DNA of 64,000 nucleotides from Gemmatimonadota bacterium (GTDB lineage: Bacteria > Gemmatimonadota > Gemmatimonadetes > Gemmatimonadales > GWC2-71-9): positions 1,844 through 65,843 of the forward strand of contig JBDHJR010000007.1 in the NCBI GenBank assembly GCA_039586815.1, given 5' to 3'. Shown here one piece after another: positions 40,820 to 64,000 of the stretch. Made by a program: the position numbers and the translations under genes. Below the pieces are notes generated by a model. That model searched no databases. It was not told where the DNA came from and saw only the letters and a program-made list of their open reading frames with translations. The stretch's first letter is position 1. The number at the start of each line of letters is the position of its first letter.

Positions 40820-41215
40820 TCAGCCGGTGTGGCACAGGGTGCAGTACTTCACATCCCTGCCCTCGTGGCTGGCCGGAGCGTCGGGAATGGCCTCCATGGC
40901 ACCGGGCGTGTGGCACATCATGCACTGCTCCCTGCCCTGCACGCCGTGGGAGACCGCCTTCGGGCTCATCGTCTGCATCGGCGAGTCTGTCGCGTGGCAC
41001 CACATGCACGTCTCGATGCCCCGTCCCTCGTGGGTCGCGGGCGCATCGGGCACCGCCTCCATGGCACCAGCGGTGTGGCACATCAGGCAGTTGTCCCGCC
41101 CCTGCACGTCGTGGCTCACCGGTGGCGGCATCGTCTCCTGCCCGAACGCCGGCACCGCAAGCACGCTGGCCACTAGCAACACACCCATGGCACTCGCGAA
41201 TCTCGCATGGCTCAT
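40820..41215 (-). CDS. Tetraheme c-type cytochrome built from an internal tandem duplication
   Basis: Signal MSHARFASAMGVLLVASVLAVPAFGQ. Two ~50-aa repeats: VSHDVQGRDNCLMCHTAGAMEAVPDAPATHEGRGIETCMWCH and VSHGVQGREQCMMCHTPGAMEAIPDAPASHEGRDVKYCTLCH. That gives 4 CxxCH motifs. Confidence 0.8.
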   Translation of the reverse strand: MSHARFASAMGVLLVASVLAVPAFGQETMPPPVSHDVQGRDNCLMCHTAGAMEAVPDAPATHEGRGIETCMWCHATDSPMQTMSPKAVSHGVQGREQCMMCHTPGAMEAIPDAPASHEGRDVKYCTLCHTG

Positions 41216-41244
41216 GAATCCCCTCCCCTGTTGATGTCAGCCAA

Positions 41245-41265
41245 AGGGCGGCCCCCCGCCGCCCT
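41245..41265 (-). terminator. Short GC stem-loop after the dodecaheme gene
   Basis: AGGGCGGC-CCCCC-GCCGCCCT (8-bp stem). It lies in the 108-nt gap before the tetraheme gene and has no U-tract. Confidence 0.3.
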
Positions 41266-41323
41266 CGGACAGATACTTCCCTGCTGTCTTATACACCGCC
41301 AAGCCGCGGCGGTCCACCCACGG

Positions 41324-42277
41324 CTACGGTGATCCCGGAATGGACGTCCCGTGACACACCGTGCACGCCTGCGGGTTGCTCTTCCGCAGACTCTCCGCGT
41401 TGAAGTTGGGCCCGTGTGGACTGACGCCCCGGTGGCAACTGATGCAGGAGCTCTCGGTGTGGCACGCCACACAGCTCTCGAGGCTCTGCCGCGCGGCTTG
41501 TCCATGACCCGCGCCGAAGCCCTGCTGGCCGTCGTGATATCCCGTGCCCTGAATGTTGTCGACAGTGAGCCGGGCCGTCTGGTGACAGTCCTGGCAGAAC
41601 TGCCCTGGATTGTGGCACGAGCTGCACTCGGCGAGCTGGGAATACGCCTCCGCCGGGTGCGCCGACAAGTAGTCGGCCTGGTGGTACCCCGGCGCGGGAT
41701 CCGCGGCCCCGGGCCGATGGCACGACAGGCAATCGGAGCGCACGTGGCAGTTGGCACACGTCTCCGGAGCCGATGTGGCCGGTCCGCGGTGCTCCTCGAC
41801 CCAGGCACCTATGTGGGACGCCGGCTGCGGCGCCTGCGCGTGGCACAGGCTGCAGGGCGACTCCGGCGCGGACTGGTGCGGCGCTTCGATGCCGTGGCAA
41901 CTGAGACAGTTGTCCACTACCGCGCGCTCGACCGCCATCGCGGGGGCGCCCGCCGCCTGGTGGCACGAAGCGCAGTCGATCGGCGGGTGCGTCTCGTGGC
42001 TGAAGTTGTCCGCTGCATAGGCGCCCGCCGTCGGCGGCTGGTACTCTACCACGGGCTGAATCTGCCCGTTGTGGCAGCCGGCACAGAAGGAGGCATCCGG
42101 GTAGACGGCTCCCTCACCGGCCACGCCGGAGTGACACATGGTGCAAGACGTGAACAGGGCAGCGTGTCGCTCGTGCGGGAATTGCCCTTGGGACCCTGGC
42201 TCCGGAGCCGGCGCCGGACCCGTTCCCGCAGCGGCGGCGATGACCACCCCCGCGGCCAGCGTCATCATGGTCTTCAT
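41324..42277 (-). CDS. Dodecaheme c-type cytochrome (c7/c3-type polymer, GSU1996-like architecture)
   Basis: ATG at 42277 (MKTMMTLAAGVVIAAAAG…). 12 CxxCH motifs in ~318 aa: CTMCH, CAGCH, CASCH, CLSCH, CSLCH, CANCH, CLSCH, CSSCH, CQDCH, CVACH, CISCH, CTVCH. c7-type leader motif FPHERHAALFTSCTMCH. Its start overlaps the stop of the barrel gene (ATGA at 42274-42277). Confidence 0.85.
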   Translation of the reverse strand: MKTMMTLAAGVVIAAAAGTGPAPAPEPGSQGQFPHERHAALFTSCTMCHSGVAGEGAVYPDASFCAGCHNGQIQPVVEYQPPTAGAYAADNFSHETHPPIDCASCHQAAGAPAMAVERAVVDNCLSCHGIEAPHQSAPESPCSLCHAQAPQPASHIGAWVEEHRGPATSAPETCANCHVRSDCLSCHRPGAADPAPGYHQADYLSAHPAEAYSQLAECSSCHNPGQFCQDCHQTARLTVDNIQGTGYHDGQQGFGAGHGQAARQSLESCVACHTESSCISCHRGVSPHGPNFNAESLRKSNPQACTVCHGTSIPGSP

Positions 42278-43797
42278 TTCGCGCTCCGCGCTTCGGGAAT
42301 CAGGAGGATCGACGGGTGCAGCGTCGGCGCGTCCGGGGTCGAGCCAAAGTAGAGCGTCAGACCCAGGTTGAAGCGCCACTGATCCCACTTGAACGCCGCA
42401 GCGTCGGGCCGCCGACGGTCTTCCGTGTAGTAGCGGGCCTCACCCATCACCCGCACGTCCGGAACCGGCAGGTAGTCGATCCGCAGCGCGCCGTTCCACC
42501 CCTTCACGTCGTTGAAGCGGTACTCCAGCGGCCGCGAGAGGTATCCGCCGTGCCCCGTGATCGTCAGGTTGTCGACCGGCGCCTCCCAGGTGACGCGGAG
42601 GTCGGCGCCGAGCTGCGTCGCGCCCGTTCCCTTCTCGGCCCAGTAGTTGCCGCCGATGCGCCACCGGTCGAACCCCGAGTAGGTGACGCCGAACAGGCCG
42701 CGCCACCCGTCGTTGGCGACGGTCCCGAAGCGGTCGGTGGCCTCGGTGTCCTCGTACTTGAAGATCTCACCGACGCCGCGCAGCTCCAGCCCCCTGATCG
42801 GGTACCAGTAGACGTTGCCGAACCCGGCGTTGTAGCCGACCGGGCTGAAGGAATTCCAGATCTGCCACAGCGGGAAGTTGGGGCGATAGCGCCGCCAGCC
42901 CACGTTGGCCCTGATGTTGCGCTTGGGGGTCGTGTACCCCACGGCCACATCAGCCGTCCCGACCACCCTCTGCGCGATGTCCCACTGCACGCCGCCGGTG
43001 ACCGAGAAGCCGCGCGAGGGGTACCAGGCCAAATCGAGGGTCGTCTGCTCGGCGAACAGGTAGTTGGCGGAGGAGGCCGCGTCGATCTCGCGGTGGTACA
43101 GCCAGCGCCCCTCGAACCCCTTGAGACGCCAACCGAGTCCGCCTCCAATCACGTACTGCCGCTGGGACGGCTGGTATTGGTCAAGCGGATTCACGTACTG
43201 GCTGGAAACCAGCACGGGAGTCCCGCGGGCCAACCCCCATCCGCCGTAGCCGAAGACCTCGAGCCTGCGGTCGAGTAGGAAGAGGTTGAGCTTGGCGCCG
43301 TCCACACCGATGTATCCCAGACGGTTGGTCTCGTGGAACCGGCCCAGCACTGCGGTGAGAAGACTGATCTTGTACTCCCCGTAGGCCTCGAGCAGCTGCA
43401 CGTCCGGCTTCACGGCGGGCCACACGTCGGGGTTCGCCAGATCGGTGCCGGCCCGGGCCTTCACGCGGAAGCTCAGGCCCCTGACGCCGAGCCCAAACAG
43501 CGCCGCATCGAGCGTGCTCACCAGCGGCGCACCCTGCCGCGCCGCTCCCTCTTTGTGGTAGTAGCAGGTCGACGTCGTGCCCTCGCCGCACGTCACGGCG
43601 AAGCCGTTCCACTCGTAGCCCCCGGTGGCGCCGGTCGTCACATCGGCGAATGGAACGCTGTCCAGATCCCAGCCCTTGTAGGCGACGGACTGGAACCAGG
43701 TGTCGAGTCGGACCTGGTATCCTTGGGCGAGAACCGGTGCCGTCCAGAAGACCAGTGCTGCGGCGGCAACCATCACGCGGACGAAGGACCGCTTCAT
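42274..43797 (-). CDS. Putative outer-membrane beta-barrel protein (porin partner of the dodecaheme)
   Basis: ATG at 43797. Signal MKRSFVRVMVAAAALVFWTAPVLAQ. It is Cys-free and rich in Gly/Tyr/Trp/Arg, with alternating-hydrophobic strands (…GLSFRVKARAG…, …LDLAWYPSRGFSVTGGVQWD…, …WRFNLGLTLYF…). I rejected the 95-codon 5' extension in the track. Confidence 0.6.
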   Translation of the reverse strand: MKRSFVRVMVAAAALVFWTAPVLAQGYQVRLDTWFQSVAYKGWDLDSVPFADVTTGATGGYEWNGFAVTCGEGTTSTCYYHKEGAARQGAPLVSTLDAALFGLGVRGLSFRVKARAGTDLANPDVWPAVKPDVQLLEAYGEYKISLLTAVLGRFHETNRLGYIGVDGAKLNLFLLDRRLEVFGYGGWGLARGTPVLVSSQYVNPLDQYQPSQRQYVIGGGLGWRLKGFEGRWLYHREIDAASSANYLFAEQTTLDLAWYPSRGFSVTGGVQWDIAQRVVGTADVAVGYTTPKRNIRANVGWRRYRPNFPLWQIWNSFSPVGYNAGFGNVYWYPIRGLELRGVGEIFKYEDTEATDRFGTVANDGWRGLFGVTYSGFDRWRIGGNYWAEKGTGATQLGADLRVTWEAPVDNLTITGHGGYLSRPLEYRFNDVKGWNGALRIDYLPVPDVRVMGEARYYTEDRRRPDAAAFKWDQWRFNLGLTLYFGSTPDAPTLHPSILLIPEARSAK

Positions 43798-43955: not shown

Positions 43956-46814
43956 TTACTGGTACCCGAAGAGCATGGAGTACACGATCAGCGCAATCAA
44001 CGTGAGCCCGACTCCGAGCGCCGCAAAAGCGAAGATCCGGAACCCCAGCTCCACCCGCTTGGGGTAGGGCTCGACCAGCCACTCCTCCAGCTTACCCTCC
44101 GCCACCAACTCCTCGTACTCTCCGGGCTTGTCAGCCTTCAGCTCCTCGATGGGCACTCGACCCGTGAAGATCACCGGGTCCATCGGGAATTTGTCGGGCC
44201 GGAAGTGCGTGTTGAAGAAGTGCACGGTGAAGATGAACGCCACCGCCAGCAGCTTCACCGACCACCCGGGCATGATGATCGTGAACAGCTCCGGGAACCA
44301 GAGCAGCAGGCCCGTCGAGCCGATGATGAACATCCCCCAGAAGACCGCGAAGTAATCGAACTTCTCCCAGTAGGTGTACCGCCCGTACTTGGGCCGCGGA
44401 CCACGGCCGAAGAACCACCTGATCGACTGCCCGAACTCCCGGAGGTCACGGGAACCGAAGATGATGGAATCCCGCGAGGTGATGTACTGCCACCACGTCA
44501 GTCCAGCGCTCTTCTTCTGCTTGCGCACGTCCCACAGGTGCACCAGGAACGTCGCGATGAGCGCCACTGCGCCGACACGGTGCAGCACCCCCGTTGTCTG
44601 GAACCCACCGGCCAGCCGCGCGGAAACCTGCGCCCACCCCATGTACGAGAACTTCAGCACCATCCCCGTGAGGGCCAGTATGAAGAAGCTGAGCAGCATC
44701 ACACCGTGCAGCGATCGCTGGAACACGGTGAACCGGCGGTACAGCGGCTCCCCGGGCTTCGCGTGGTGCCGCTTTCGCGCCTCCGGCGTGCGCACCAGCC
44801 GGAACAGCCACGCCAGGGTGTGCAGCGTGGCGAAGGTCAGAGTACCGACCAGCAGTGCCGTCATGCCCCAGAAGGTCCAGAACAGGAACGGGTATTTCTC
44901 CGGATCGTGGTGCGTGGCGTGTGTGAGATACCCCGTGAAGCGGATGTTGGCGCCAGCGTGGCACCGTGAGCAGGTCTCCACCACGTTGCGGCGGCTCAGC
45001 AGCGAGGTCGGCTCGCTGGTGGGCAGGATGTTGTGGGTCCCGTGGCAGTCGTAGCACTTGGCGGCCGCCTCGTCCCCCAAGCGCGAGACCTTGCCGTGGA
45101 ACGTGTCGAAGAAGGTCTTTGCCTCGTCCTCGTGACACCGGCCGCACTGGTTCATCATGAGCAGCCGGAAGTCGCCCCGGTCTACCCGCCTGATGGTGTG
45201 CGACGTGTGGCAGTCCTCGCAGGTGGGGAGCGAGCGGTGGTCGTCGGGCTCTCCCACGTCCGGCGAGTGGATGCTGGTGTTGAAGATCTCCTCGATGCCG
45301 TGATGGCACGTACCGCAAGTCCCGGCGAGGTTGTCGGGGTGCACACTCGAGTTGGGGTCGTCCGCTGGCAGCTCGCGGTGCGCCGTGTGGCAATTGCTGC
45401 ATGTGGCGGTCACAACCAGTCCGCTCTCGAACAGCCCCTTGCCGTGGATGCTCATCTCGTAGCTCTCCACGGGGGGCGGGATGTCCATTGTGCGCGCCAG
45501 GGCTTCGAGCGGCTCCGGTCCAGCGGCTTCGATGTCCTCCATTAGGTGCGCCGACTCGATGCGCACCGCAGCGGTCTGGCCCGTGCGGTGGCACTGCGCG
45601 CACAGCGCCGGCACGTTGCGGGCGAAAGTCGGCGAGGCCGGGATCCGCTTGCCCAGGGTAGCGTGCTGGTCGTGGCAGTCGAGACACACCGGTGCGTCAG
45701 GATCACCTTCGGCGGCCAGCCGGCCATGCATGCCGGCCGTGTACTCCCCGACCTCGTCCTCGTGGCACGCGGCGCAGTCCACCCGCTGGGTGATCGCCGC
45801 GCAGGGTCGCGATAGCCTGGGGCTCACCTCAGCGTGGCACTGGGCACACGGTGTCTCCGCGTGGCTCGAGGTGAAGTACGCTTCCTCGTTCACGTAGAGC
45901 GACACCGTGTCGCCCCGCGCCACTCCCACGAGCTCCTCGTCACCGTGGCATCGCAGGCAGTTGGCGTTGGCCGAGCCAGCCTCGTAGAACACCCTGCGAA
46001 TACGGTGCGGCGCATGGCAGTCCACACAGGCGGGGATCTGGTGAGGCTCCTCCTCCCATAGCCGCCCCTCGATGACCTGCACGTGCACCTGCTCGATCTG
46101 CGCGTGGCACTGCGTGCAGGTTTCCGCGACGTTGTCGTGGTGGATGCTCGAGCGGGCGTCGGTGTGCGGTAGGATGAAGTGCGACGTATGGCACGAGGTG
46201 CACACCGCCGTCACGGTGAGCCCCTGCTCGTACAGCCCCGAGCCGTGGATCGACTGGGAGTAGTTCTCGAGGATGCTGTCCTGGGGAATCTGCAACCGCC
46301 GCGAGACTGGCGTGCCCTCCTGGTGGCACTCCCCGCACAGGAACGGGATGTTCATCACCCGCGTGGGCGAGCGGGGGTCGCGGTGGGAGCGTATGTCGTG
46401 CGTGCCGTGACAGTCGACGCAGCTGGGGGCAAGCGGGTCGGCACGGGCTGCCGCCTGCCCGTGCAGTGAAGCGTCGTGCTCCTCCGCCTGCTGGCGGTGG
46501 CACAGGCTGCAGTCGACCGCCGGCACATCGTCGGGATGCGGGAAGCTCAGCCCGGTGTGGCACATGACGCAGAGCATCCCGGTCTGCCCGTGCGCGGATC
46601 CGCCGAACTCTTGCTCGTCCACGACGAGCTGCGCAGCGTCGGGGCGCCCCTCGAACAGCGCGGGGTTGGTGTGGCACATCAGGCAGGGTTGATTGTCCTG
46701 TGCCACTGCGCCCGCAGCCACACAACAGAAGAAGGCGGCGAGCAGCACACCCCTCCCAACCACCCACACCCGATGGTTCCGGCTGCTCGACCGCCACCCA
46801 TGATGGCTGCGCAT
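43956..46814 (-). CDS. CbcL-like fusion: 19-heme periplasmic cytochrome c domain + C-terminal diheme b-type (HydC/FdnI-like) membrane domain
   Basis: ATG at 46814 (MRSHHGWRSSSRNHRVWVVGRGVLLAAFFCCVAAGAVAQ). I counted 19 CxxCH motifs from CLMCH to CSRCH. A 4-5 TM domain follows with conserved His residues (…FQRSLHGVMLLSFFILALTG…, …GVLHRVGAVALIATFLVHLWD…, …FIFTVHFFNTHFRPDKFPMD…). Confidence 0.85.
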   Translation of the reverse strand: MRSHHGWRSSSRNHRVWVVGRGVLLAAFFCCVAAGAVAQDNQPCLMCHTNPALFEGRPDAAQLVVDEQEFGGSAHGQTGMLCVMCHTGLSFPHPDDVPAVDCSLCHRQQAEEHDASLHGQAAARADPLAPSCVDCHGTHDIRSHRDPRSPTRVMNIPFLCGECHQEGTPVSRRLQIPQDSILENYSQSIHGSGLYEQGLTVTAVCTSCHTSHFILPHTDARSSIHHDNVAETCTQCHAQIEQVHVQVIEGRLWEEEPHQIPACVDCHAPHRIRRVFYEAGSANANCLRCHGDEELVGVARGDTVSLYVNEEAYFTSSHAETPCAQCHAEVSPRLSRPCAAITQRVDCAACHEDEVGEYTAGMHGRLAAEGDPDAPVCLDCHDQHATLGKRIPASPTFARNVPALCAQCHRTGQTAAVRIESAHLMEDIEAAGPEPLEALARTMDIPPPVESYEMSIHGKGLFESGLVVTATCSNCHTAHRELPADDPNSSVHPDNLAGTCGTCHHGIEEIFNTSIHSPDVGEPDDHRSLPTCEDCHTSHTIRRVDRGDFRLLMMNQCGRCHEDEAKTFFDTFHGKVSRLGDEAAAKCYDCHGTHNILPTSEPTSLLSRRNVVETCSRCHAGANIRFTGYLTHATHHDPEKYPFLFWTFWGMTALLVGTLTFATLHTLAWLFRLVRTPEARKRHHAKPGEPLYRRFTVFQRSLHGVMLLSFFILALTGMVLKFSYMGWAQVSARLAGGFQTTGVLHRVGAVALIATFLVHLWDVRKQKKSAGLTWWQYITSRDSIIFGSRDLREFGQSIRWFFGRGPRPKYGRYTYWEKFDYFAVFWGMFIIGSTGLLLWFPELFTIIMPGWSVKLLAVAFIFTVHFFNTHFRPDKFPMDPVIFTGRVPIEELKADKPGEYEELVAEGKLEEWLVEPYPKRVELGFRIFAFAALGVGLTLIALIVYSMLFGYQ

Positions 46815-46958
46815 CCTCGTCACCACTCGTCCCCGCCTAGATTCGATCGAATCGTGCCCCCGCCAAGATACACTTGAATGCCGCACCGAGAGCCGGCCCG
46901 GTAGATCCTAAAGAATTCCTCACCCGAATTTGTAAGTCGGTGCCAGGTCACCCCTTAG

Positions 46959-47016: not shown

Positions 47017-49008
47017 TCAGTTCTTCGTCCGCACCGTTCCGCCTGATTCTCGCGTCGGCGTGTTCTGCGCTGCGGCGGCGTTCTCATCAACGCCTTGAGC
47101 CGAGGCCGCGGGAGCCAACTCCTCGTCATACCACTGCGCGTGGTGGTGCATCACGAAATGCTCCGGCAAGCGGCCCGTTAGCCATGCCCAGTTCATGGGG
47201 TATGCGTCGGGGTGCACGATCACGAAGAAGAGGTGCCACACCAGGATTGCAAGCGTGGCGAGCCAGGCCTCGTAGTAGTGCACCGTCTGCGACGCCGGCA
47301 CGATCCACCACGGCAGGATCTTCACCGCCGCGACCGGGAACCAGAGCACGAATCCGGTCACCACCATGACCACCGTGCCCCACACCAGCGCCCAATACTC
47401 CGCCTTCTGCGTGTAGTCGTAGCGCCCGAAGCGCGGGTGCTTCCTCGTACGCCACGTGTAGTACCGCAGGTACTGCGTCGCGTCGGTGGCGTCGCGCCAC
47501 TGCGGCAGCATCGCCTTGAACTCTTCCTTGCCCCGCCGCGTCATCATGACGTACAGCACGTGGCTCACCGCCACCGCGATGAGCACGACCGCGGCGATGC
47601 GGTGCAGGTTGGAGCGCACCGGCTCGTTCATGCCGATGGCGGTGAGCCATTGGACCCACCACGCGTCGGGGAACCGCAGCGCAAACCCCGTGACCACCAG
47701 CAGGATGAAGGCCACGGCGTTGACCATGTGTTGCGCCACCTGAGTACGATCGAGCCGCGTGATGTAGCCCACCCGCCGTTCCTCCCGGCGGCGCTCGATC
47801 AGGTAGTAGTTGAACACCACGGCGTTGTGCAGCGCCATGATCCCGATCGTCGCCGCGATGATCACGTAGTAGATGAGGCGGATCACGTTGTTGATCGGGT
47901 TGGCCGCCATGGAGGCCGTGATGTGGGTGTAGCTGGTTGCGAACTCCGTGTCGGCATCCGGATGGCACTGTCCGCAGGTGGCCGTCAGGTTGGCCGGGTG
48001 GATCGTGGAGGCCGAGTCGGACGCCGGCAGCACTGCATGGGTGGTGTGGCAGCTCACGCAGGTGGCGGCGCGCTCATAGTCGCGGGCCGTCGCCCAACCG
48101 TGGTAGCTGTCCTCGTAGGTGCCAATGACGCCACCCTGCATGCCATACTTGGCGATGATCTCCGGGTCGCCGTGGCACTCGCCGCACGTCTCGGTCGCGA
48201 GCCGGGCGTCGTAGGTCCGGGCGTGGGGGTCGTCGTGGGACAGGATCAAGTGCTCCCCGTGACAGTCCGTGCACGTGGGGCTGTCGCCCAACCCCGCCCG
48301 CAGCGCCCGCCCGTGAATCGAGGCATCGTAGAGCCGCTCAATTTCGTCGTGGCATTGGCCGCACGTGGAGGCGACGTTCAGGTGGTTGATCTTGGACTCG
48401 GGGTCCAGCGTCCCCCGCAGATCGTGCACGCCGTGGCAGTCGGTGCAGCGGGCGGCATCTCCGTCACCGTTGCGGCCGTGCACTGACTGGGCGTACGACC
48501 CGTAGATCTGGGGCAGGCGGACGGCCTCTTCGGTACGCAGGCCCGCCTCGCCGTGACAGGCGGCGCACATTATTGGGACGTTCTCGTGGTGAGTACGCGC
48601 CTCCGGATCCGAGCTGCGCCGGATGTCGTGCGCCCCATGACAGGAGGCGCAGGTCGGAGCTGCGGCAACCCCGCGCGCCAACGCGTAGCCGTGCAGGCTC
48701 TCGCTGAACTCCTGTTCCACGCCGCCGTGACACCCTCCGCAGCTCGGTGGCGGGGCGTCGGCAGGATGGGGGAACCCCGTGTAGCCCTGGTGACAGAACA
48801 CGCACTGCAAGCCAAGCGCCCCGTGCACGGAGGATGTGTACTCCTCCTCCGTGACCACCATCTGCGTCGGGTCCTCCAGCCCGGAGAACATGGCCACGTC
48901 GCCGTGGCACATGAGGCAGAGTTGGTTGTCCTGGGCCGCGGCGGGCTGTGCCGCTATGAATACGCTGGCGATCGCCAGCGAGAAGATCGTCAAGGGACTC
49001 GCGCGCAT
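47017..49008 (-). CDS. CbcL-like fusion: 11-heme cytochrome c domain + C-terminal diheme b-type membrane domain
   Basis: ATG at 49008 (MRASPLTIFSLAIASVFIAAQPAAAQ). 11 CxxCH motifs: CLMCH, CVFCH, CGGCH, CASCH, CAACH, CTDCH, CGQCH, CTDCH, CGECH, CVSCH, CGQCH. The TM domain has His residues at …VAQHMVNAVAFILLVVTG…, …LHRIAAVVLIAVAVSHVLY…, …TVHYYEAWLATLAILVWHLFFVIVHPD…. Its N-terminal 60 aa are clearly paralogous to those of 43956-46814. Confidence 0.85.
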   Translation of the reverse strand: MRASPLTIFSLAIASVFIAAQPAAAQDNQLCLMCHGDVAMFSGLEDPTQMVVTEEEYTSSVHGALGLQCVFCHQGYTGFPHPADAPPPSCGGCHGGVEQEFSESLHGYALARGVAAAPTCASCHGAHDIRRSSDPEARTHHENVPIMCAACHGEAGLRTEEAVRLPQIYGSYAQSVHGRNGDGDAARCTDCHGVHDLRGTLDPESKINHLNVASTCGQCHDEIERLYDASIHGRALRAGLGDSPTCTDCHGEHLILSHDDPHARTYDARLATETCGECHGDPEIIAKYGMQGGVIGTYEDSYHGWATARDYERAATCVSCHTTHAVLPASDSASTIHPANLTATCGQCHPDADTEFATSYTHITASMAANPINNVIRLIYYVIIAATIGIMALHNAVVFNYYLIERRREERRVGYITRLDRTQVAQHMVNAVAFILLVVTGFALRFPDAWWVQWLTAIGMNEPVRSNLHRIAAVVLIAVAVSHVLYVMMTRRGKEEFKAMLPQWRDATDATQYLRYYTWRTRKHPRFGRYDYTQKAEYWALVWGTVVMVVTGFVLWFPVAAVKILPWWIVPASQTVHYYEAWLATLAILVWHLFFVIVHPDAYPMNWAWLTGRLPEHFVMHHHAQWYDEELAPAASAQGVDENAAAAQNTPTRESGGTVRTKN

Positions 49009-55944: not shown

Positions 55945-56112
55945 CACGGACACCTCCCCCACATATCGTTGGCACCGACACCCCGTGCAGTTCGCGGGAC
56001 GCTGCTACTAATTAATGCGAGCAAACTAGTCGCGCAATAGAGGGCTTCCGACTAAAGAAACATTAATAGTCCGTTATACATTATCGACTTAGCCGCCCGC
56101 ACCGGCGCACCA
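55945..56112 (-). promoter_or_regulatory. AT-rich 168-nt gap inside the supercluster (candidate internal promoter/regulatory site)
   Basis: …CTACTAATTAATGCGAGCAAACTAGTCGCGCAATAGAGGGCTTCCGACTAAAGAAACATTAATAGTCCGTTATACATTATCGACTTA… (~56005-56092) is far more AT-rich than the surroundings. It separates bc module 1 from bc module 2. Confidence 0.35.
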
Positions 56113-57710: not shown

Positions 57711-58994
57711 TCAGGTGGTGGGTTGTTCCCTGCTATCGAGCTCGCGGATCTTGAGCAGGAGCCCGACAATCAACATCCCGATGATGACCACCGAGATGGC
57801 CAATCCCATGCGTCGGAACTGGAGCCGCCCCGTTGCCTGTACCCCAAGCTCGTGGGCCGTCGCCGCGATCTCCAACCCCGACTCGACCTCGTCCTTCACG
57901 GCAATCACGTTGAACGAGTGCACGGCCGCTCGGGCGCTGATCAACGCGGTGCTCGCGCCGGTGAGCTCGAATTGCGCCTGGCTCACCTCCATGCCGGCGT
58001 CCTCTGCCCGCTCCAGAAGCGAGTCCGCCTCATGATGCGCCGTCGAGAGGGAGTCGATCAGGCTGCGCATCGCGCTGGCTACCTGGCCACCCGGGTCTCC
58101 GGAGGTGTGGCACCTGGCGCACACCGCTCCCTCCTCGAGCCCGAGTAGATCGTCACCGGGCCGCGTGATGTCGTGGTTGTTGTGGCACGTTGCACATCCC
58201 GGCACACCCAGCATCGCAAATGTCCGCGCGTGCCTGCTCTGCGCGAAGAGATCCGCCATCACGCTGTGGCACTGCCCGCACACGTTGCCGACCCAGGAGA
58301 TTCCGGGCGGGGCAGCGCCATGATTGCCGTGACAGTCGTTGCAGGTGGGTGCCGACAGATCGCCCCCTTCCGACATCGCCTCCCAATGGACGCTCCGCTG
58401 ATATCGCTCCAGTTGGTCGACGGGAATGCGATACGGCTCCATGTACTCGGCATCGGCATGACAGCTCGAGCAGGTCGCAGGTACGTTCAGCGGATTGACA
58501 CTCGAGAGCGGGTCCGTCGGCGGTCTGATGGAGTGCGCTGGGTGGCAGCTCACGCACGTCGCCGTCTTTGAATCGCCGAGCTCTATCAGCCGCCGACCGT
58601 GAACCGAGCTGGCAAATTCCGCCACCTGGTCAACACGAATCGACGGGTTATAGCGCCTCATGAACTCCGCGTTCGAGTGGCAGCGACCACAGAACTCGGC
58701 AACCTGCTCGCGCCCGGGCTTGGCGAGGAATCCCTTGGCCGGGTCCATGGAGGTAATCCCAGGATCCGTCGCATCGCCGCCGTGGCAGGCGACACAGCCA
58801 AATCCCCTCGCCGCATGAATGTCACTGGGAAACGCCCTCGCTGGATTGGAGAGCCGTTCGTCGCCCAGCACCAGGTGGCACGCTCGGCAGTTGTCCTCCG
58901 CGGCCTCCTGCTCTTGCGCAAGCACATCTGCCTGCGACGCGAACGTGGCAAGCAGACAGAGCGAGGCGAGCGTGCGGAGAGCCGAGCGCGACAT
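57711..58994 (-). CDS. Nonaheme c-type cytochrome with C-terminal membrane anchor (paralog of 51186-52421)
   Basis: Signal MSRSALRTLASLCLLATFASQADVLAQ. Nine CxxCH motifs (CRACH, CVACH, CGRCH, CVSCH, CSSCH, CNDCH, CGQCH, CATCH, CARCH). A helical region and the TM helix GLAISVVIIGMLIVGLLL follow. Confidence 0.85.
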   Translation of the reverse strand: MSRSALRTLASLCLLATFASQADVLAQEQEAAEDNCRACHLVLGDERLSNPARAFPSDIHAARGFGCVACHGGDATDPGITSMDPAKGFLAKPGREQVAEFCGRCHSNAEFMRRYNPSIRVDQVAEFASSVHGRRLIELGDSKTATCVSCHPAHSIRPPTDPLSSVNPLNVPATCSSCHADAEYMEPYRIPVDQLERYQRSVHWEAMSEGGDLSAPTCNDCHGNHGAAPPGISWVGNVCGQCHSVMADLFAQSRHARTFAMLGVPGCATCHNNHDITRPGDDLLGLEEGAVCARCHTSGDPGGQVASAMRSLIDSLSTAHHEADSLLERAEDAGMEVSQAQFELTGASTALISARAAVHSFNVIAVKDEVESGLEIAATAHELGVQATGRLQFRRMGLAISVVIIGMLIVGLLLKIRELDSREQPTT

Positions 58995-60250
58995 CAGTTC
59001 TCACGCCCCAGCGTCTGGAGATACGAAGACAGGTCCGCCATCTCGACGGTGCTGAACGTGGGCCAGGCCTCGCCTTCTATCATGGCTGCGTGGTTCCACA
59101 GTGCCGCCATGACCGCGGCGGGCGAGTCGAGCCCTTGAACCTGAGCCAGGTCGCCGGCCGCCGTGCCTCCTGTTCCTCCCACTGAATGACACTCCAGACA
59201 TCCCTTATCTCGCACGCGGCGCGCTCCTCGGGTCGCATTGCCTGCCTCGCCAAAGTACCGAACCGACGACAGATAGGCGACGAGATCCGCCATGTCTCCC
59301 GCGCTGAGCCGCGGGACCGAGATCCCACTCGTCTGGATCGCCTCGAGCATGGAGGGAGCCTTATTCCACATGGCCGCGGCGAAGTCGATCAGGCTCTCGT
59401 GCCGTCCCATTCTACCCAGGTCCGGTGCCAACATGCCAGTCTCACCATCGTCGCCGTGGCATTGGCTGCAGCCACGGTCCACGAAACGCTGGCGGCCCTC
59501 CACCGGACGCCCCGGGAGCACGTACAGCGGTGCAGTCGGCATCGCCGGAGACCACGACTCCAGGAAGGCGATGACATCCGTCAGCTCGGAGCCAGTGAAG
59601 GAGGGACGTCTGATTCCTTGAGCCCGCATCGCTTCGGTCATTGCCGGGCCGTGGTTCCACATCGCCGTGGCGATCTGGATCGGCGATCCGTACTGGCTCA
59701 GGAAGTCGAGGTCCGGCCCGGCGACACCACCAACTCCGGCGACCTGGTGGCAGAGCACGCAGTTCTTCTCGGTGAAGAGCTGCCGACCGCGCTCGATCTC
59801 GCCGGGAGGATCGAAGTAGTCGAGCCATACCAGAAAGGCGACCAGGTCGCCGGCTTCCCACGGATCCAGGTGTGGCCGCGCGATCCCGAGCTCATCCATA
59901 CGCTGCACCATCTGCGGGAGGTGATTCCACATCGCGGCGGCAAAGCCGTAGTAGGACTGAGGCTCGGAGGACCGCCCCAAGTCGGGGCCCACCGCGCCGC
60001 CAACTCCGTCGATGGCATGGCACCCGGCGCACCCCATGGCTCCGAAGAGCCGTGCACCTGCCGGCACGCTTTGGCCAGTTCCTTCCGGTATCTGCGAAAG
60101 CAGCGGCTGGAGCGGCCAGCCGAGCACCACGAGAGCGCCACACAGCGCCCGCACCGTGGCTCCCATGCTGTGTCTGATCATTGGCCACCGTCCTTCATGC
60201 TGAAGCCCAACTCGCACTGGCAGACCAGCACTCTGCAGCAGAGCCGTCAT
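58994..60250 (-). CDS. Cytochrome c with four tandem class-I monoheme domains
   Basis: Four ~100-aa repeats of G..LF…GC..CH…G.GG..GPDL……..A.MWNH...M…….P.…E..D..A(F/Y)L. The heme motifs are CAGCH, CVLCH, CSQCH and CLECH. The start is uncertain: 60250 directly abuts the upstream stop, and an alternative ATG lies at 60181. Confidence 0.8.
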   Translation of the reverse strand: MTALLQSAGLPVRVGLQHEGRWPMIRHSMGATVRALCGALVVLGWPLQPLLSQIPEGTGQSVPAGARLFGAMGCAGCHAIDGVGGAVGPDLGRSSEPQSYYGFAAAMWNHLPQMVQRMDELGIARPHLDPWEAGDLVAFLVWLDYFDPPGEIERGRQLFTEKNCVLCHQVAGVGGVAGPDLDFLSQYGSPIQIATAMWNHGPAMTEAMRAQGIRRPSFTGSELTDVIAFLESWSPAMPTAPLYVLPGRPVEGRQRFVDRGCSQCHGDDGETGMLAPDLGRMGRHESLIDFAAAMWNKAPSMLEAIQTSGISVPRLSAGDMADLVAYLSSVRYFGEAGNATRGARRVRDKGCLECHSVGGTGGTAAGDLAQVQGLDSPAAVMAALWNHAAMIEGEAWPTFSTVEMADLSSYLQTLGREN

Positions 60251-61480
60251 TCAGTCACGCCCTCCCGGCTCCTGTGCTTCGGCGAGATTCTTGAGAAAGA
60301 CCGACAGATCCCGCATTTCGTCGCCTTCGAACAGCGGCCACTCCGCATGTTGGAGCTGCGACTGGTCGTACATGGCCGGGGCATGGTCCCACATGGCCGT
60401 GGCGAGTCCGAGCGGCGTCCGGACCGCCTGCGACTCGGATAGGTCGGGTCCGGCCGCCGACTCGCTGCCGCTGGTGTGGCAGGTCGAGCATCCTTTGCTG
60501 CCGAACAGCGCCTCGCCCCGCCGCACGTCACCCCCCATCTCATTGAACCGCAGGTAGTACAGGAACGCGATCACGTCGGCCATTTCGGTTCCTTGGAACC
60601 GCGGAAACGAAATACCCCGACCGCGCATGACCTGGGCCATCTGCGACGCGTGGTTCCACAGCGTCCCCGCGATCTCGGAAACCCGCAGCCGTTGCGTCGC
60701 CGTGCGCAGGTCCGGGCCGAATGCCGTCCCGCTACCATCCGGTCCGTGGCAGGCGACACATCCTTTCGTCGTGAACAGCCGTCGACCCGTGTTGGGGTCT
60801 GGCGGCGTGAGGAACACCAGGTCGCGTCCCCGCAGCGAAGAACGCTCTCGGATGTACGCCTGGATGTCCGCCATCTCTCGCCCGAGGAAGGTGGGCATCG
60901 GGACCCGCTCCACCGATAGCTGCGCTCGCATACTGGCCCAGTGGTTCCACATCCCCTGGGCAAGCACGATCGGTGCGACATAGCGAGCGTAGTCGTCGAG
61001 CGCAGGACCGCCATTCCCGCCTTCACCGCCCACGGCGTGACATGCTGCGCAGCGCTGTTCCCGGTACCACCGCTCGCCGAGCCCGGGGTCTCCCGGCTCG
61101 TCGAACAGCTTCACGTAATAGATGTAACTGATGATGTCAGCGAGCTCCGCCTCCGTGAAGGTGGTCCACTGGAATCCCCTCTCTCTCACGGTCTGTATCA
61201 TCCTCGGCGTGTGGTTCCAGAACACCCCCGCCAGTTGCTGCAGGCTCCGACCGGCTCCGACCAGCGCGAAGTCGGGACCCAGGTTGCCGCCATTCCCCCA
61301 GATGGCGTGGCACCGCACACAGCCCCGCTCGACGAACAGGCGCCGACCGGCAATTGGGTCGCCCGGAATCGACTCGGTTGACTGTGCATGGGTGCTCGGC
61401 GCGCCGGTCATGGTGAGCCAGGCGAGGGCTCCCACGACCCGCAACCACGGATGTTTCACACAACGAAGAGGAGGCATCAT
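60251..61480 (-). CDS. Cytochrome c with four tandem class-I monoheme domains (paralog of 58994-60250)
   Basis: Signal …VVGALAWLTMTGAPSTHAQ. Heme motifs CVRCH, CAACH, CVACH, CSTCH, each followed by GPDL…(M/F)WNH…M and …E(L/M)ADI(I/Q)(S/A)Y(I/L)…. Confidence 0.8.
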   Translation of the reverse strand: MMPPLRCVKHPWLRVVGALAWLTMTGAPSTHAQSTESIPGDPIAGRRLFVERGCVRCHAIWGNGGNLGPDFALVGAGRSLQQLAGVFWNHTPRMIQTVRERGFQWTTFTEAELADIISYIYYVKLFDEPGDPGLGERWYREQRCAACHAVGGEGGNGGPALDDYARYVAPIVLAQGMWNHWASMRAQLSVERVPMPTFLGREMADIQAYIRERSSLRGRDLVFLTPPDPNTGRRLFTTKGCVACHGPDGSGTAFGPDLRTATQRLRVSEIAGTLWNHASQMAQVMRGRGISFPRFQGTEMADVIAFLYYLRFNEMGGDVRRGEALFGSKGCSTCHTSGSESAAGPDLSESQAVRTPLGLATAMWDHAPAMYDQSQLQHAEWPLFEGDEMRDLSVFLKNLAEAQEPGGRD

Positions 61481-61496: not shown

Positions 61497-62843
61497 CTAG
61501 AATCCGGTCGAGCTCGAGTACCTCGCCACCCGCTCGGCCACTTCCTGCACGGCCTCTCGCCCTTCCTTAATCTCCCAGATCGAGACGATCGGCACGAACT
61601 TTGTGGCGACCATGTAGAGTAGGACGAACCCAGAGAACGTCGCGGACATGATGGAGAACTCGATCCACGACGGCAGATAGTGACCGATGGACTCGACCTC
61701 CCAGCGTGGATTGACTGACGTGGGAACCACGATGTTATACCGCTCGAGCCACATGCCGATCACCACGGCAATGCTGGCGATGAGCGTGCCGCGTGGTGTC
61801 CGGGTCGACGGCCGCGCCATGAGGGTCAGTGGGATCACGAAGCAACCCGCGACCATGAGCCAAAACGGTATGGCAAATGGGCCGGTCAGCTTCGCCCAGA
61901 AAGTGCGCATCTCGCCCGGCTCACCGCCATAGAAGGCCGTCAGATACTCCGCGAACGTGAAGTAGAACCACAGCACGCTGAACACGAGCAGCATGCGCCC
62001 GAGGTAGTCGAAGTGAATATCCTTGAAGTAGCCCTCGAGGCCGTACGCCTTTCGCAAGATCACCATCGCGATCAGGATCGCCGCGATTCCGGAGTAGATC
62101 GCCCCCATGACGAAGTAGGGTCCGAAGATGGTGCTGTGCCACATCGGTCGCAGCGTCATCGCAAAGATCCAGCCAATCACCGTGTGCACCGACACCGCGA
62201 TGGGAATCACGACGATCGACAAGACTCCGATGGTACGCTCCAGTCGCCAGCGCTGTACGGGCGTACCCCTATACCCGATGGCCAGAAACCTGTAGAGGCG
62301 CGGAGCCTTGATTCCCGAGTCACGAATGATCGCCAGGTCCGGGATCATCGGGACGTAGAGGTAGATCGTGCAGGCCGTGAAATAGAGCCCGATGCTGATC
62401 ACGTCCCACAGCAGTGGGGAACGGAGCTGGGCATGGAACAACACATTGAGCACACGGTCGGGCCGCCCCAAGTCGATGATCGGCTGGATCGCGCCGAACC
62501 CGATGACGAGCACGGTGATCAGCTCCGCCGATCGGGTGATCGCCCGTCTCCACTCCGCCTTGCTGACCCGAAGGATGGCGGAGATCAGCGTACCAGCGTG
62601 GCTGATACCGATGAAGAACACGAAGCAGATGATGTAGATGCCCCAGTAGCCTGGCCGGTTCAATCCGGTGCGGCCGAGACCGTGGCGGACCTGCAGGTAG
62701 TAGGCGAAGACGCCCCAGAGGGTGACGGCGACCAGGATGGCCGCCACGACGTAGAACCCACGCGAAGTCTCCACGAGAGGCCGCAAGAGCACGCGCTCGT
62801 CGGGCGGCAGGCCGTCCAGTTTGGCCTTCACGTCCTCACGCAT
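61497..62843 (-). CDS. NrfD/PsrC/ActC-family quinone-interacting membrane subunit
   Basis: 448 aa, ~10 TM helices. …GLNRPGYWGIYIICFVFFIGISHAGTLISAILRVSKAEWRRAITRSAELITV… is the characteristic NrfD-family N-terminal block. It lies 1 nt downstream of the FeS subunit gene. Confidence 0.85.
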   Translation of the reverse strand: MREDVKAKLDGLPPDERVLLRPLVETSRGFYVVAAILVAVTLWGVFAYYLQVRHGLGRTGLNRPGYWGIYIICFVFFIGISHAGTLISAILRVSKAEWRRAITRSAELITVLVIGFGAIQPIIDLGRPDRVLNVLFHAQLRSPLLWDVISIGLYFTACTIYLYVPMIPDLAIIRDSGIKAPRLYRFLAIGYRGTPVQRWRLERTIGVLSIVVIPIAVSVHTVIGWIFAMTLRPMWHSTIFGPYFVMGAIYSGIAAILIAMVILRKAYGLEGYFKDIHFDYLGRMLLVFSVLWFYFTFAEYLTAFYGGEPGEMRTFWAKLTGPFAIPFWLMVAGCFVIPLTLMARPSTRTPRGTLIASIAVVIGMWLERYNIVVPTSVNPRWEVESIGHYLPSWIEFSIMSATFSGFVLLYMVATKFVPIVSIWEIKEGREAVQEVAERVARYSSSTGF

Positions 62844-62844
62844 G

Positions 62845-63528
62845 TTACCCCCTCGCTCGCAGGTAGTAGACCTTGGGCTGCGTTCCCAGATCCTCCATCA
62901 ACCGCATCACACGTGGATCCTCCTTGAGCTCGGCCACCCGATGGGTCGGATCGTCGAGGTCGCCGAAGACGATGGCACCGGTGGGACAGATCTCGGCGCA
63001 CGCCGGCTGATAGTCGTCCTCCCGCAGCTCGCGCCCTTCGGCGCGGGCGTCCTCCCGTGCGTGCTGCAGCCGGTGGTGGCAGAAGGTGCACTTCTCGATG
63101 ACGCCCTTGGACCGCACCGACACGTCCGGATTGAGATGCTGGCGCTCGGATTCGGCCCACTCGGGTCCGTACCAGTTGAAGTACTTGACCAGGTAGGGGC
63201 ACGCGTTGGCACAGTAGCGGCATCCGATGCAGCGCGGATAGATCTGACCGACGACCCCCTCGTCGCTGATGTACGTCGCCTCAACCGGACACACCTTGAT
63301 GCAGGGGGGGTTGTCACAATGCATGCAGGGACGAGGGTAGAAGTGCATGGCCGTGTGGGGGAACTCTCCCTCCACATGCGCCGTCACCTTCATCCAGGCG
63401 ATGGTGCGTCCCATCTCCGCCTGCTCGGGCGAGACCGTCGGGATGTTATTCTCGCTCTTACACGCCACCTCGCACGCGGCACAGCCCGTGCAACGGTCGA
63501 GGTCGATCACCATGCCCCATCGCGTCAT
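62845..63528 (-). CDS. 4Fe-4S ferredoxin-type subunit (PsrB/NrfC/ActB2-like)
   Basis: The ATG at 63528 gives MTRWGMVIDLDRCTGCAACEVACKSEN…, …CMHCDNPPCIKVCP…, …RCIGCRYCANACPY…, …KCTFCHHRL…ACAEICPTGAIVFGD. These are four Cys clusters in the arrangement of CISM-family beta subunits. I rejected the 5' extension in the track because it overlaps the upstream gene's 3' end. Confidence 0.9.
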   Translation of the reverse strand: MTRWGMVIDLDRCTGCAACEVACKSENNIPTVSPEQAEMGRTIAWMKVTAHVEGEFPHTAMHFYPRPCMHCDNPPCIKVCPVEATYISDEGVVGQIYPRCIGCRYCANACPYLVKYFNWYGPEWAESERQHLNPDVSVRSKGVIEKCTFCHHRLQHAREDARAEGRELREDDYQPACAEICPTGAIVFGDLDDPTHRVAELKEDPRVMRLMEDLGTQPKVYYLRARG

Positions 63529-63542
63529 CGTTCCCGCACCCC

Positions 63543-64000
63543 TCACGCCCTCTCGAGGCGTATGAAGGTGGAATACCAGTTCGACAACCCCGTCAGCGAA
63601 TCGCTCGACGGCTCGAGCACCTGGAGAGGATTGGCCGACTCTCCCTCGGGGGATTGCAGCCGGTAGGGTGCACACACGTTTTCCGCGGCGGTACCCGGAA
63701 AGATCTTGAGGCGCGCACGATACCGGCCCCGTCGGGACGTCACCCACACCATCGTGCCGTCGGCCAAACCCATCGCCGCAGCTGTGGCGGGCGCAACTTC
63801 CACCCAAGGCGCCCAATGCACCTCGGGGAAGAGACCGGGCTGCTCCACGAGCCACCGCTCGAACGCCAGTGTGCCCGACGCGAGGGTCGAGACTCGGTAC
63901 GGCATGAGCCGAAGCGGGAACTGGTCCTCGGCAATCGTTGCCTCTGCCGCCACATCGATGTACGGCGTCCGGTCTCCGCCCTCCGCATCGATCGCGCGCA
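63543..64000 (-). CDS. Molybdopterin-oxidoreductase-family large subunit, C-terminal part (gene continues beyond the right edge)
   Basis: The frame is open to the window edge. …FPLRLMPYRVSTLASGT…NPWLVEQP-like…VEVAPATAAAMGLADGTMVWVTSRRGRYRARLKIFPG… is the typical C-terminal molybdopterin-dinucleotide-binding beta-barrel domain of Psr/Phs/Ttr/ActB1-type subunits. The catalytic region is outside the window. Confidence 0.7.
   Translation of the reverse strand, partial: RAIDAEGGDRTPYIDVAAEATIAEDQFPLRLMPYRVSTLASGTLAFERWLVEQPGLFPEVHWAPWVEVAPATAAAMGLADGTMVWVTSRRGRYRARLKIFPGTAAENVCAPYRLQSPEGESANPLQVLEPSSDSLTGLSNWYSTFIRLERA

Follow-up and report, generated by a model that had tools for sequence, protein, structure and literature searches.

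Does one locus in a Gemmatimonadota bacterium encode a route for electrons between the quinone pool and the surroundings of the cell? The question is raised by positions 40820-64000 of the window, by which we mean the whole 64,000-nucleotide (nt) stretch of contig JBDHJR010000007.1. The initial annotation of this stretch had described the block as a single-strand array of 17 genes with about 102 CxxCH haem motifs in ten proteins, and had proposed that it is a complete system for extracellular electron transfer (EET). We estimate a probability of about 60% that the block makes up most of a respiratory island encoding a conduit of the porin-cytochrome type, which would connect the quinone pool of the inner membrane and the cell exterior. 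The EET reading is reasonable and better supported than before, and it is also less unprecedented and less unitary than was first claimed.

The strand and the haem content of the array were borne out by direct counting. Open reading frames (ORFs) with protein-family support are confined to the minus strand between 40820 and 64000, and the coding share of this region is 95.6%. There are 102 CxxCH motifs over ten proteins (4+12+19+11+21+9+9+9+4+4), and one extra, incidental motif is found in the Fe-S subunit at 62845..63513. As a control, the same 23 kb has no CxxCH in the three plus-strand frames and 103 on the minus strand, all in coding frame. Because the plus-strand frames have none, the density of haem motifs is far above chance.

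The conduit itself would be encoded at the downstream end of the array, where three genes follow one another.

42274..43797, minus strand: predicted outer-membrane beta-barrel of a new family, 507 amino acids (aa), with a signal peptide and about 22-24 strands (AlphaFold2 (AF2) model and Foldseek)
41324..42277, minus strand: dodecahaem cytochrome, 317 aa, 12 CxxCH, about 24 residues per haem, in ATGA overlap with the barrel gene
40820..41215, minus strand: small tetrahaem cytochrome with a signal peptide and 4 CxxCH, an internal repeat of two duplicated dihaem halves

The barrel candidate is predicted to be a large outer-membrane beta-barrel. Its AF2 model, from a 38-sequence alignment, is all-beta with about 24 strand elements and an N-terminal signal helix (predicted local distance difference test score (pLDDT) 80.7, predicted template modelling score (pTM) 0.72). 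A Foldseek comparison of the model with the PDB returned outer-membrane barrels exclusively; the best TM-score was that of the 24-strand FimD usher (TMq 0.45), and MtrB (6r2q_B) was among the matches. The barrel proposed at first is, therefore, what both the model and the structural comparison return. No Pfam, NCBIfam or PADLOC family is matched by the barrel, including PF11854 (MtrB/PioB), and Pfam scans at E<=0.01 and E<=10 gave a sub-threshold LptD fragment as their sole return. Clustered at 50%, the family comprises 623 representatives, and homologues of the barrel carry the name Gemmatimonadales; a profile search of proteins with the barrel alignment gained just one weak match. A scan with one genome per species found 384 barrel loci, and the best 80 of these 384 are all from metagenome-assembled genomes (MAGs) of Gemmatimonadota. 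As far as these 80 loci show, the family appears to be restricted to this phylum. The closest barrels among the matches listed, with 86-87% identity, belong to Bohai Sea sediment MAGs, which derive from coastal sediment of 0 to 62 cm depth, including layers deeper than 30 cm (PMC11316326).

The barrel was claimed to be translationally coupled to the dodecahaem cytochrome, and this coupling is found both here and in relatives. In the window, the barrel stop and the 12-haem start share an ATGA. In 74 of the 77 genome loci that have room downstream, the barrel has an [A/G]TGA overlap with an ORF of 5-16 CxxCH, and in the remaining 3 a multihaem ORF lies within 400 nt of the barrel. The number of CxxCH in the coupled ORF is 16 in 46 loci and 12 in 11 loci. 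No other single observation argues as strongly as this coupling for a stoichiometric porin-cytochrome complex. Each CxxCH of the dodecahaem cytochrome (12/12) is invariant or at least 90% conserved, as are about 13 other His residues, and all 12 motifs fall in one 317-aa frame beginning at the barrel ATGA overlap. In the public call of the Joint Genome Institute (JGI), this gene is cut down to the final 139 aa, and a spurious ORF of 69 aa is called on the other strand. We regard the dodecahaem cytochrome as a candidate for a wire inserted in the barrel. The tetrahaem gene is kept 3' of the 12-haem gene in the closer lineages.

A possible surface partner of the barrel is encoded further upstream.

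54376..55962, minus strand: nonahaem lipoprotein, 9 CxxCH, lipobox-like AMAAC|T

The lipobox is present in 41 of 43 nonahaem/octahaem lipoprotein homologues (37 by regular expression and four more by inspection), and a gene of this kind is located at most 10 kb from the barrel in 46 of 81 loci, often adjacent to it in other lineages. Thus, the nonahaem lipoprotein is a candidate cell-surface or outer-membrane cytochrome. It resembles OcwA of Thermincola potens (6I5B; PMC6703420) in its nine haems, its length (about 526-528 aa) and the proposed cell-surface role, but it is a lipoprotein of the Gram-negative kind, and the likeness (phmmer 6e-10 against 6i5b) is confined to short haem-module segments that are not colinear. 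For this reason orthology with OcwA was rejected.

Between the barrel and the lipoprotein gene are three long cytochromes with predicted membrane domains, here listed with their transmembrane (TM) helices.

43956..46886, minus strand: 19-haem::cytochrome b fusion directly upstream of the barrel, 19 CxxCH, Ni_hydr_CYTB 1e-8
47017..49059, minus strand: 11-haem::cytochrome b fusion of the HydC/FdnI type, Pfam Ni_hydr_CYTB 2e-19, 5 C-terminal TM helices
49196..51184, minus strand: 21-haem cytochrome with an N-terminal TM helix and a tetrahaem head of the NrfH/NapC/NirT type, 21 CxxCH and one CxxxxCH

By their domain make-up, both haem::cytochrome b fusions fit the architecture of the CbcL/MtrH/MtoC family, in agreement with the CbcL-type precedent cited at first. 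Like these proteins, they have an N-terminal multihaem part fused to a C-terminal dihaem cytochrome b of the HydC/FdnI type with 5-6 TM helices. The known family is reported to have 3-23 haems and one Gemmatimonadetes member, and mtrH/mtoC genes adjoin mtrAB/mtoAB in several bacteria (PMC6295460). The array differs in having tandem 11- and 19-haem paralogues, with the 19-haem gene fixed just upstream of a barrel that is not of the Mtr family; the match is one of architecture. The 11-haem fusion aligns with FdnI (1kqf_C) at 7.5e-7, including both helix-IV His residues. When searched alone, the C-terminal domain of the intact 19-haem protein (from assembly L002) had no PDB match; because of this, its kinship with FdnI is drawn through the 11-haem paralogue. 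The 19-haem protein would be long enough for spanning much of the periplasm, and it is 64-75% identical in relatives whose barrels are at a mere 38-46% identity.

The window's copy of the 19-haem::cytochrome b gene is without 10 residues, NVATILHSDE, through a 30-nt in-frame deletion (44117-44250 region, minus strand). The missing segment includes the counterpart of His155, a haem ligand in FdnI, and this His is unchanged in 16 relatives. In a sister assembly from the same sample (L001), 51 nt, or 17 residues (PVIFTGRVPIEELKADK), are absent slightly further along the gene, while assembly L002 and all 16 relatives keep both segments. A JGI metagenome contig of 142.8 kb matches the window at 99.98-100% identity, barring two in-frame indels. 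The indels in the 19-haem::cytochrome b gene, which set apart three near-identical assemblies, may be real, segregating loss-of-function alleles or assembly artefacts.

The head of the 21-haem protein (residues 19-107) matches Pfam Cytochrom_NNT (PF03264) at 1.3e-8, with 35.2 bits against a gathering cut-off of 24.1, and NrfH TIGR03153 at 6.6e-13, under the equivalog cut-off. Since 17 further haems are fused to this head, membership of the NapC/NirT/NrfH family holds at the domain level only. The NapC/NirT-type head proposed initially is confirmed, but the precedent of ImcH does not apply. ImcH has three N-terminal TM helices with one CX3CH and six CX2CH (PMC6295460), and identity with it was rejected for a protein with one TM helix, 21 CxxCH, no CxxxCH and one CxxxxCH. 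The 21-haem gene starts one nucleotide downstream of a gene for an anchored nonahaem cytochrome, the last gene of the second of two Rieske/cytochrome b modules.

57711..58994, minus strand: nonahaem cytochrome of module a, C-terminal TM anchor (TM 396-414), 9 CxxCH, multihaem Pfam families, putative analogue of cytochrome c1/f
57212..57694, minus strand: Rieske [2Fe-2S] subunit of module a with a twin-arginine translocation (TAT)/TM anchor, Pfam Rieske 5.5e-13, b6f PetC 1e-17, CTHLGC...CACHNGH
56113..57210, minus strand: cytochrome b of module a, fused b6 + subunit IV type, Pfam Cytochrome_B 5.5e-53, four His ligands, PEWY
53781..54236, minus strand: membrane-anchored Rieske-fold protein of module b without cluster ligands ('pseudo-Rieske'), Pfam Rieske_2 9e-7, b6f Rieske 7e-6 for the extended form
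52421..53779, minus strand: second cytochrome b (module b), Pfam Cytochrome_B 6e-46, four His ligands present
51186..52418, minus strand: second nonahaem cytochrome (module b), C-terminal TM anchor (TM 385-403), 9 CxxCH

Module a (56113-58994) is assigned as a bona fide Rieske/cytochrome b complex of the bc1/b6f type with an atypical nonahaem c subunit. With these complexes it has in common a complete set of ligands in the Rieske protein, a cytochrome b of the b6 type with four His and PEWY, and an anchored c-type subunit, which is a nonahaem cytochrome in the array. Its cytochrome b scores 227 bits with the cytochrome b6 subfamily and 217 bits with ExtP. In contrast, module b (51186-54236) has neither the CxH...CxxH ligands of a Rieske protein nor PEWY, and so falls outside the bc1/b6f type. 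Both His ligands of its Rieske-fold protein are substituted (C-I-L, C-S-Y-V), and the relatives compared all share these substituted positions with the window. At the Qo site of its cytochrome b, all orthologues aligned have a conserved S-T-W-V in the place of PEWY, with the four haem His retained. The start of the pseudo-Rieske gene is uncertain: it is GTG 54089, or CTG 54236 when the conserved N-terminal TM helix is included. This helix (54090-54330 region, minus strand) is in frame, 5' of the first ATG/GTG/TTG, with candidate starts at CTG 54236, CTG 54296, ATC 54290 and ATC 54308. The conserved anchor therefore requires a non-canonical start codon, and the public annotation has an anchor-less form of 102 aa. 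Our literature search returned no described counterpart of a complex of a cluster-less Rieske protein and an STWV cytochrome b.

The remaining genes of the window's array form a molybdopterin-family unit and two cytochromes.

63543..64000, minus strand: 3' end of the gene for a QrcB-like molybdopterin-family (Mo-pterin) subunit, Pfam Molydop_binding; the whole gene (785 aa, TAT signal) extends past the window
62845..63513, minus strand: QrcC-like 4x[4Fe-4S] subunit, 222 aa, NCBIfam QrcC 1e-90 (304 bits, cut-off 400), DsrO 1e-49, Fer4 families
61497..62843, minus strand: NrfD-family integral membrane subunit, putatively quinone-interacting, 448 aa, at least about 8 TM helices by TM scan, Pfam NrfD 1.4e-37
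60251..61480, minus strand: periplasmic cytochrome (a) with four class-I cytochrome c domains, Pfam Cytochrom_C 1e-30 in 4 stretches
58994..60250, minus strand: periplasmic cytochrome (b) with four class-I cytochrome c domains, Pfam Cytochrom_C 1.2e-29

Pfam and NCBIfam upheld the modules that had been assigned at first, with the exception of the label of alternative complex III (ACIII) or Psr for this unit, which is better described as Qrc-like from its family matches and gene order. The full Mo-pterin protein matches QrcB at 4e-94 (316 bits, cut-off 440) in NCBIfam; in the PDB it matches ArrA at 4e-38 and PsrA at 3e-32, and the ActB structures 6f0k_B and 8k9e_B far less strongly. The NrfD subunit fits DsrP (5e-30) better than QrcD (8e-12; 45 bits, cut-off 570), and a 5-haem cytochrome encoded upstream, outside the window, matches QrcA at 9e-23 (81 bits against a cut-off of 180). 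The subunit order A-B-C-D is that of Qrc, though every Qrc score is under the NCBIfam equivalog cut-off. Thus, the unit resembles the Qrc of sulfate reducers in its order of a multihaem c (QrcA-like, 5 haems), a Mo-pterin-like subunit with TAT signal, a 4x[4Fe-4S] subunit and NrfD; it differs in an NrfD nearer to DsrP, in the 4x class-I cytochrome c that follows, and in a host that is no known sulfate reducer. The hallmarks of ACIII are a fused ActB, ActC plus ActF, the pentahaem ActA and the monohaem ActE. Because its Mo-pterin and Fe-S genes are separate, that is, ActB is unfused, and it has a single NrfD gene rather than ActC + ActF, the unit is not ACIII. The label of a catalytic Psr/Phs/Arr was rejected as well: E-D-G aligns where PsrA (2vpw Cys174) and ArrA have the Cys ligand of Mo, which is missing. 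The N-terminal CxxCxxxC FS0 motif is kept. Cytochrome (a) accompanies the Qrc-like module in relatives (genes 05-09 of the island, in transcription order, are linked in loci L027 and L090), while cytochrome (b) constantly adjoins the Rieske/cytochrome b unit, with the order 10-11-12-13 unchanging in metagenome loci.

These modules bear on a different explanation, in which the island is periplasmic and handles soluble or colloidal substrates (selenite or tellurite; polysulfide, thiosulfate or tetrathionate; nitrogen oxides). The barrel would then be an anchor or a channel for substrates, and the multihaem proteins would act as reductases in the periplasm. The nearest described cluster of a porin, multihaem proteins and Rieske/cytochrome b is extHIJKLMNOPQS of Geobacter sulfurreducens (GSU2940-2930), which encodes the porin-like ExtI, 5/12/10/4-haem cytochromes, the Rieske protein ExtO and the cytochrome b ExtP (PMC5877670, PMC6148476) and is implicated in selenite/tellurite reduction (PMC5877670). 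Like the array, it gathers a porin-like outer-membrane protein, multihaem proteins, Rieske, cytochrome b and a small membrane protein in one cluster. The cytochrome b proteins of the array score 191-217 bits on ExtP, and the 4x cytochrome c proteins match ExtS. The Mo-pterin subunit is within the Psr/Phs/Arr/Qrc clade, and a type III sulfide:quinone reductase (SQR)-DsrC-DsrE2 set is located 1.7 kb downstream on the same strand. The nonahaem lipoprotein shares haem modules with OcwA, which belongs to the NrfA/octahaem-reductase lineage and reduces soluble compounds too. However, all Ext models are under cut-off, and the ExtP score is about that of generic cytochrome b6. ExtI is a 45-kDa phosphate-porin-like protein unrelated to the barrel of the array; the array has neither a rhodanese nor an ExtKL-type selenoprotein, belongs to a different phylum, and has seven candidate inner-membrane modules where Ext has one. 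The missing Mo-ligand Cys speaks against a catalytic Psr/Phs/Arr. In addition, the near-universal [A/G]TGA coupling of the barrel to a haem-dense protein (about 24 aa per haem) with 9-16 haems is the signature of a stoichiometric complex and not of a diffusion porin. We therefore consider a role in soluble-substrate reduction quite improbable. The Ext cluster also makes too strong the initial statement that no described locus joins quinol modules and a porin-cytochrome exit, as do clusters of porin-cytochrome conduits (PCC) with petB/petC that were noted in MAGs (PMC13264449).

Is the array one system? The window is touched by 18 genes: 17 complete ORFs, as counted at first, and the truncated gene of the Mo-pterin subunit. 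On the JGI contig the array runs on for about 7 kb beyond the right window edge, so that the window does not hold the complete system that was claimed. The extension holds the rest of the Mo-pterin gene and five further genes, in transcription order an 8-haem cytochrome, a TtrB/DsrO/NrfC-like Fe-S protein, a second NrfD, a 182-aa membrane protein and the 5-haem QrcA-like cytochrome. The full island has about 30 kb, 23 genes, about 115 CxxCH and seven candidate quinone-interacting modules. Its upstream boundary is formed by divergent MGMT, recF-like, dciA and gyrB genes (contig region L003 1-3329, past the right edge), a gene set that is usual around replication origins; the GC skew is negative all along the window, with no switch. 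At the other end, a consensus scan alone gave the following feature.

40763..40793, minus strand: terminator-like GC-rich hairpin, 27 nt past the tetrahaem stop codon, 13-bp stem with 10 GC pairs

This hairpin (40793-40763) is likely the 3' end of the transcription unit. Elsewhere in the array, terminator scans gave about background, with a weak terminator-like site in the 49.1 kb gap, and a sigma-70 promoter scan of the array gave no signal exceeding shuffle expectation. The junctions within modules, first described as mostly 0-16 nt or overlapping, do include overlap (ATGA), and their measured range is -4 to 29 nt. The longer gaps between modules were listed correctly at 41.2 kb (108 nt), 43.9 kb (158 nt), 46.9 kb (130 nt), 49.1 kb (136 nt) and 56.0 kb (150 nt); the gap at 54.3 kb is 139-286 nt, varying with the start codon picked for the pseudo-Rieske gene.

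Relatives show which parts of the array stay together. The order of pseudo-Rieske, cytochrome b, 9-haem, 21-haem, (11-haem::cytochrome b), 19-haem::cytochrome b, barrel, 12-haem and 4-haem genes (block 15-23) recurs with barrels down to about 38% identity. More distant lineages have an 8-haem lipoprotein and an 18-haem cytochrome 5' of the barrel and a 16-haem cytochrome 3' of it. The colinear order 09-19 is kept in the close relatives L089, L092 and L102, the Qrc module is inverted between genes 14 and 15 in L090, and modules 01-03, 15-18 or 19-23 are inverted downstream of gene 13 in L105, L125 and L096. Despite these inversions and reshuffling, the modules of relatives remain within about 10-20 kb. 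Co-conservation thus holds for block 15-23, while the other modules vary in order and strand. The modules are shuffled yet linked, and the array is not a fixed one. The unit of 4x cytochrome c, 9-haem cytochrome, Rieske and cytochrome b (genes 10-13) has an invariant order with 72-83% identity, and frequently stands alone on contigs of other Gemmatimonadota. Because it so often stands alone, it is most simply taken as the phylum's complex III. It is probably this general complex III, as judged from gene order and identity, and not the dedicated EET entry that the initial annotation saw in it.

These observations could also mean that there is no single pathway, and that independent operons (complex III, a Qrc-like complex, Cbc-like quinol oxidases and a porin-cytochrome pair) have clustered near the ccm genes. 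The gaps of 108 to about 290 nt between modules, the differences in module order and strand among relatives, the many contigs on which unit 10-13 stands alone with 72-83% identity, and the weak terminator-like site in the 49.1 kb gap all agree with it. For genes 10-13 this explanation is partly true. For the array as a whole we hold it possible but doubtful, since the modules stay within about 10-20 kb across lineages with barrels down to about 38% identity, the order of block 15-23 is retained, and the modules here are co-directional, 95.6% coding, with a single strong terminator-like hairpin at the far end.

We return to the conduit between quinone pool and cell exterior. From the gene content, domain identities, barrel fold, coupling and co-conservation we infer its localisations, partners, substrate and direction of flow as follows. 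Quinol would be oxidised, or quinone reduced, at the haem::cytochrome b fusions, the NrfH-headed 21-haem protein and/or the PEWY-less cytochrome b complex. Electrons would be carried by long periplasmic haem chains, including the 19-haem::cytochrome b encoded beside the barrel. They would be received by the 12-haem cytochrome, which would be made stoichiometrically with the 22-24-strand barrel and housed within it. From this cytochrome, electrons would move on to the surface nonahaem lipoprotein and/or the tetrahaem cytochrome; their final acceptor would be insoluble or outside the cell, for example humics, partner cells or oxides of Fe(III)/Mn(IV). General coupling between periplasm and quinone would fall to the Qrc-like unit and the bona fide Rieske/cytochrome b complex, which could permit either direction. 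Within this conduit, outward flow is favoured over inward flow, though sequence cannot decide the direction; the redox-potential-specific entry points and the direction of flow proposed at first are pure inference.

If the same hardware is run inward, the barrel and 12-haem cytochrome would, in the manner of MtoAB/PioAB, draw electrons from cathodes, partner cells, sulfide minerals or Fe(II) outside the cell. Quinone would then be reduced by the Qrc-like complex and the haem::cytochrome b fusions, and the Rieske/cytochrome b complex and class-I cytochromes would feed oxidases or denitrification enzymes. Best matches to QrcA/B/C favour this version, and in the hosts in which it has been characterised, Qrc reduces quinone. 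The high-potential-type class-I cytochromes and the PEWY-bearing Rieske/cytochrome b within the array agree with it as well. In this lineage no extracellular cytochrome adjoins the two-gene core of barrel and periplasmic multihaem protein, a layout similar to that of MtoAB/PioAB and 'PCC4' (PMC5566968). CbcL/MtrH/MtoC homologues are known from Fe(II) oxidisers as well as Fe(III) reducers (PMC6295460), and other putative Fe-oxidation genes were found in marine Gemmatimonadota (PMC11316326). However, the lipoprotein multihaem partner is conserved, as in the outward Mtr/Pcc systems, and no marker of carbon fixation or Fe oxidation was seen within the 64-kb window. Overall, inward flow seems unlikely to us.

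Outward or inward, the conduit is similar to MtrCAB, MtoAB, PioAB and Pcc (OmbB-OmaB-OmcB) in having a barrel of at least 20 strands beside a haem-dense periplasmic multihaem protein, with a lipoprotein multihaem partner. It differs in its order, with the barrel followed by the cytochrome through ATGA, in its 12-16 haems versus 8-10, and in a lipoprotein gene that is about 10 kb upstream of the barrel in this lineage. In the literature that we searched, with subscription journals mostly outside reach, we found no paper describing the array. The study of the closest MAGs reports only FeGenie matches (Cyc2, DFE_0461-0465 and three MtrABC operons), and the array is undescribed there (PMC11316326). 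Likewise, we did not find in the literature searched the barrel family, its coupling to a 12-16-haem cytochrome, the fixed 19-haem::cytochrome b neighbour, or the gathering of seven quinone-linked modules in one island.

Several points weigh against a conduit to the cell exterior. The organism is uncultured. In its sequence the barrel shows kinship with neither MtrB/PioB nor any curated family, and all members of the barrel family that bear a name are 'hypothetical'. The AF2 model of the dodecahaem cytochrome, from a 37-sequence alignment, is poor (pLDDT 58.8, pTM 0.34), too poor to support the rod-like shape of the MtrA type. The lipobox is the sole pointer to extracellular exposure of any cytochrome. 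In the window, the 19-haem::cytochrome b allele is without a probable haem-b ligand. The nearest described analogue with porin and Rieske/cytochrome b is the Ext system mentioned above, which is linked to selenite/tellurite reduction. Finally, the lone occurrence of unit 10-13 may mean that part of the 'supercluster' is a neighbourhood rather than a pathway.

Other loci of the window are relevant to the same theme. The genes ccmE/F/H and a second putative outer-membrane conduit locus next to them, at 17646-27351 (both strands) and 28063-31079 (minus strand), are found 10-23 kb downstream of the array on the same contig; in a distant relative, ccm genes are likewise beside the barrel cluster. 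The second locus contains the following genes.

21669-23696, plus strand: 675-aa secreted protein without family match, ending in ...VREF
23699-24514, plus strand: 7-haem cytochrome, 2 nt after the 675-aa protein
24518-26383, minus strand: 14-haem cytochrome with an MtrC/MtrF-domain match, convergent
26380-27351, minus strand: NHL propeller, convergent
19951-20556, minus strand: 4-haem cytochrome
18737-19849, minus strand: NHL lipoprotein
17646-18584, minus strand: 312-aa lipoprotein

With its multihaem proteins and NHL propellers, this locus may correspond to DFE_0461-0465, which is among the FeGenie matches reported for marine Gemmatimonadota (PMC11316326). In distant Gemmatimonadales loci (L005 15629-20540 and others such as L031), further sets of two multihaem proteins and a 526-aa protein of no family are present near the barrel locus, and L031 has a 34-haem ORF. 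These extra sets suggest several paralogous conduit types per genome. The sulfur set mentioned above, at 36840-39050 (minus strand), consists of type III SQR (NF049943, 598 bits, cut-off 525), DsrC/TusE and DsrE2, and is a possible sulfide-to-quinone input into the same quinone pool. Further away, six tandem paralogous ORFs of 87-97 aa (5270-6974, minus strand) are directly upstream of PspA_IM30 (4313-5089) and an AI-2E-family transporter (3180-4313). A TM helix at the N terminus, a coiled coil and a conserved C-terminal motif E-R-[VL]-D-F-[TA]-E-R-[VLM] are common to all six, which belong to no Pfam family.

Gemmatimonadota are abundant in soils and sediments and, to our knowledge, are not known as electroactive. 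They are widespread, and abundant in some sediments, and their anaerobic energy metabolism is poorly understood (PMC11316326). We tentatively propose, as a conjecture that goes further than the conduit itself, that this phylum owns a specific, hard-wired form of EET. It would combine barrels of a new family, with a wire of 12-16 haems inside, a 19-haem::cytochrome b that bridges the quinone pool and the outer membrane on its own, and a hitherto undescribed class of cytochrome b complex without Rieske cluster and PEWY that feeds a nonahaem/21-haem chain. Current marker sets barely catch the array, since the sole survey of these MAGs gives generic FeGenie matches (PMC11316326). The barrel family and the cluster-less Rieske/PEWY-less cytochrome b are possible new models for the discovery of EET genes, and targets for expression and structure work. 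The island would supply a genetic basis for electron exchange with minerals, humics, electrodes and partner cells. If this is true, Gemmatimonadota would be a major unrecognised guild of metal-respiring or mineral-oxidising bacteria.

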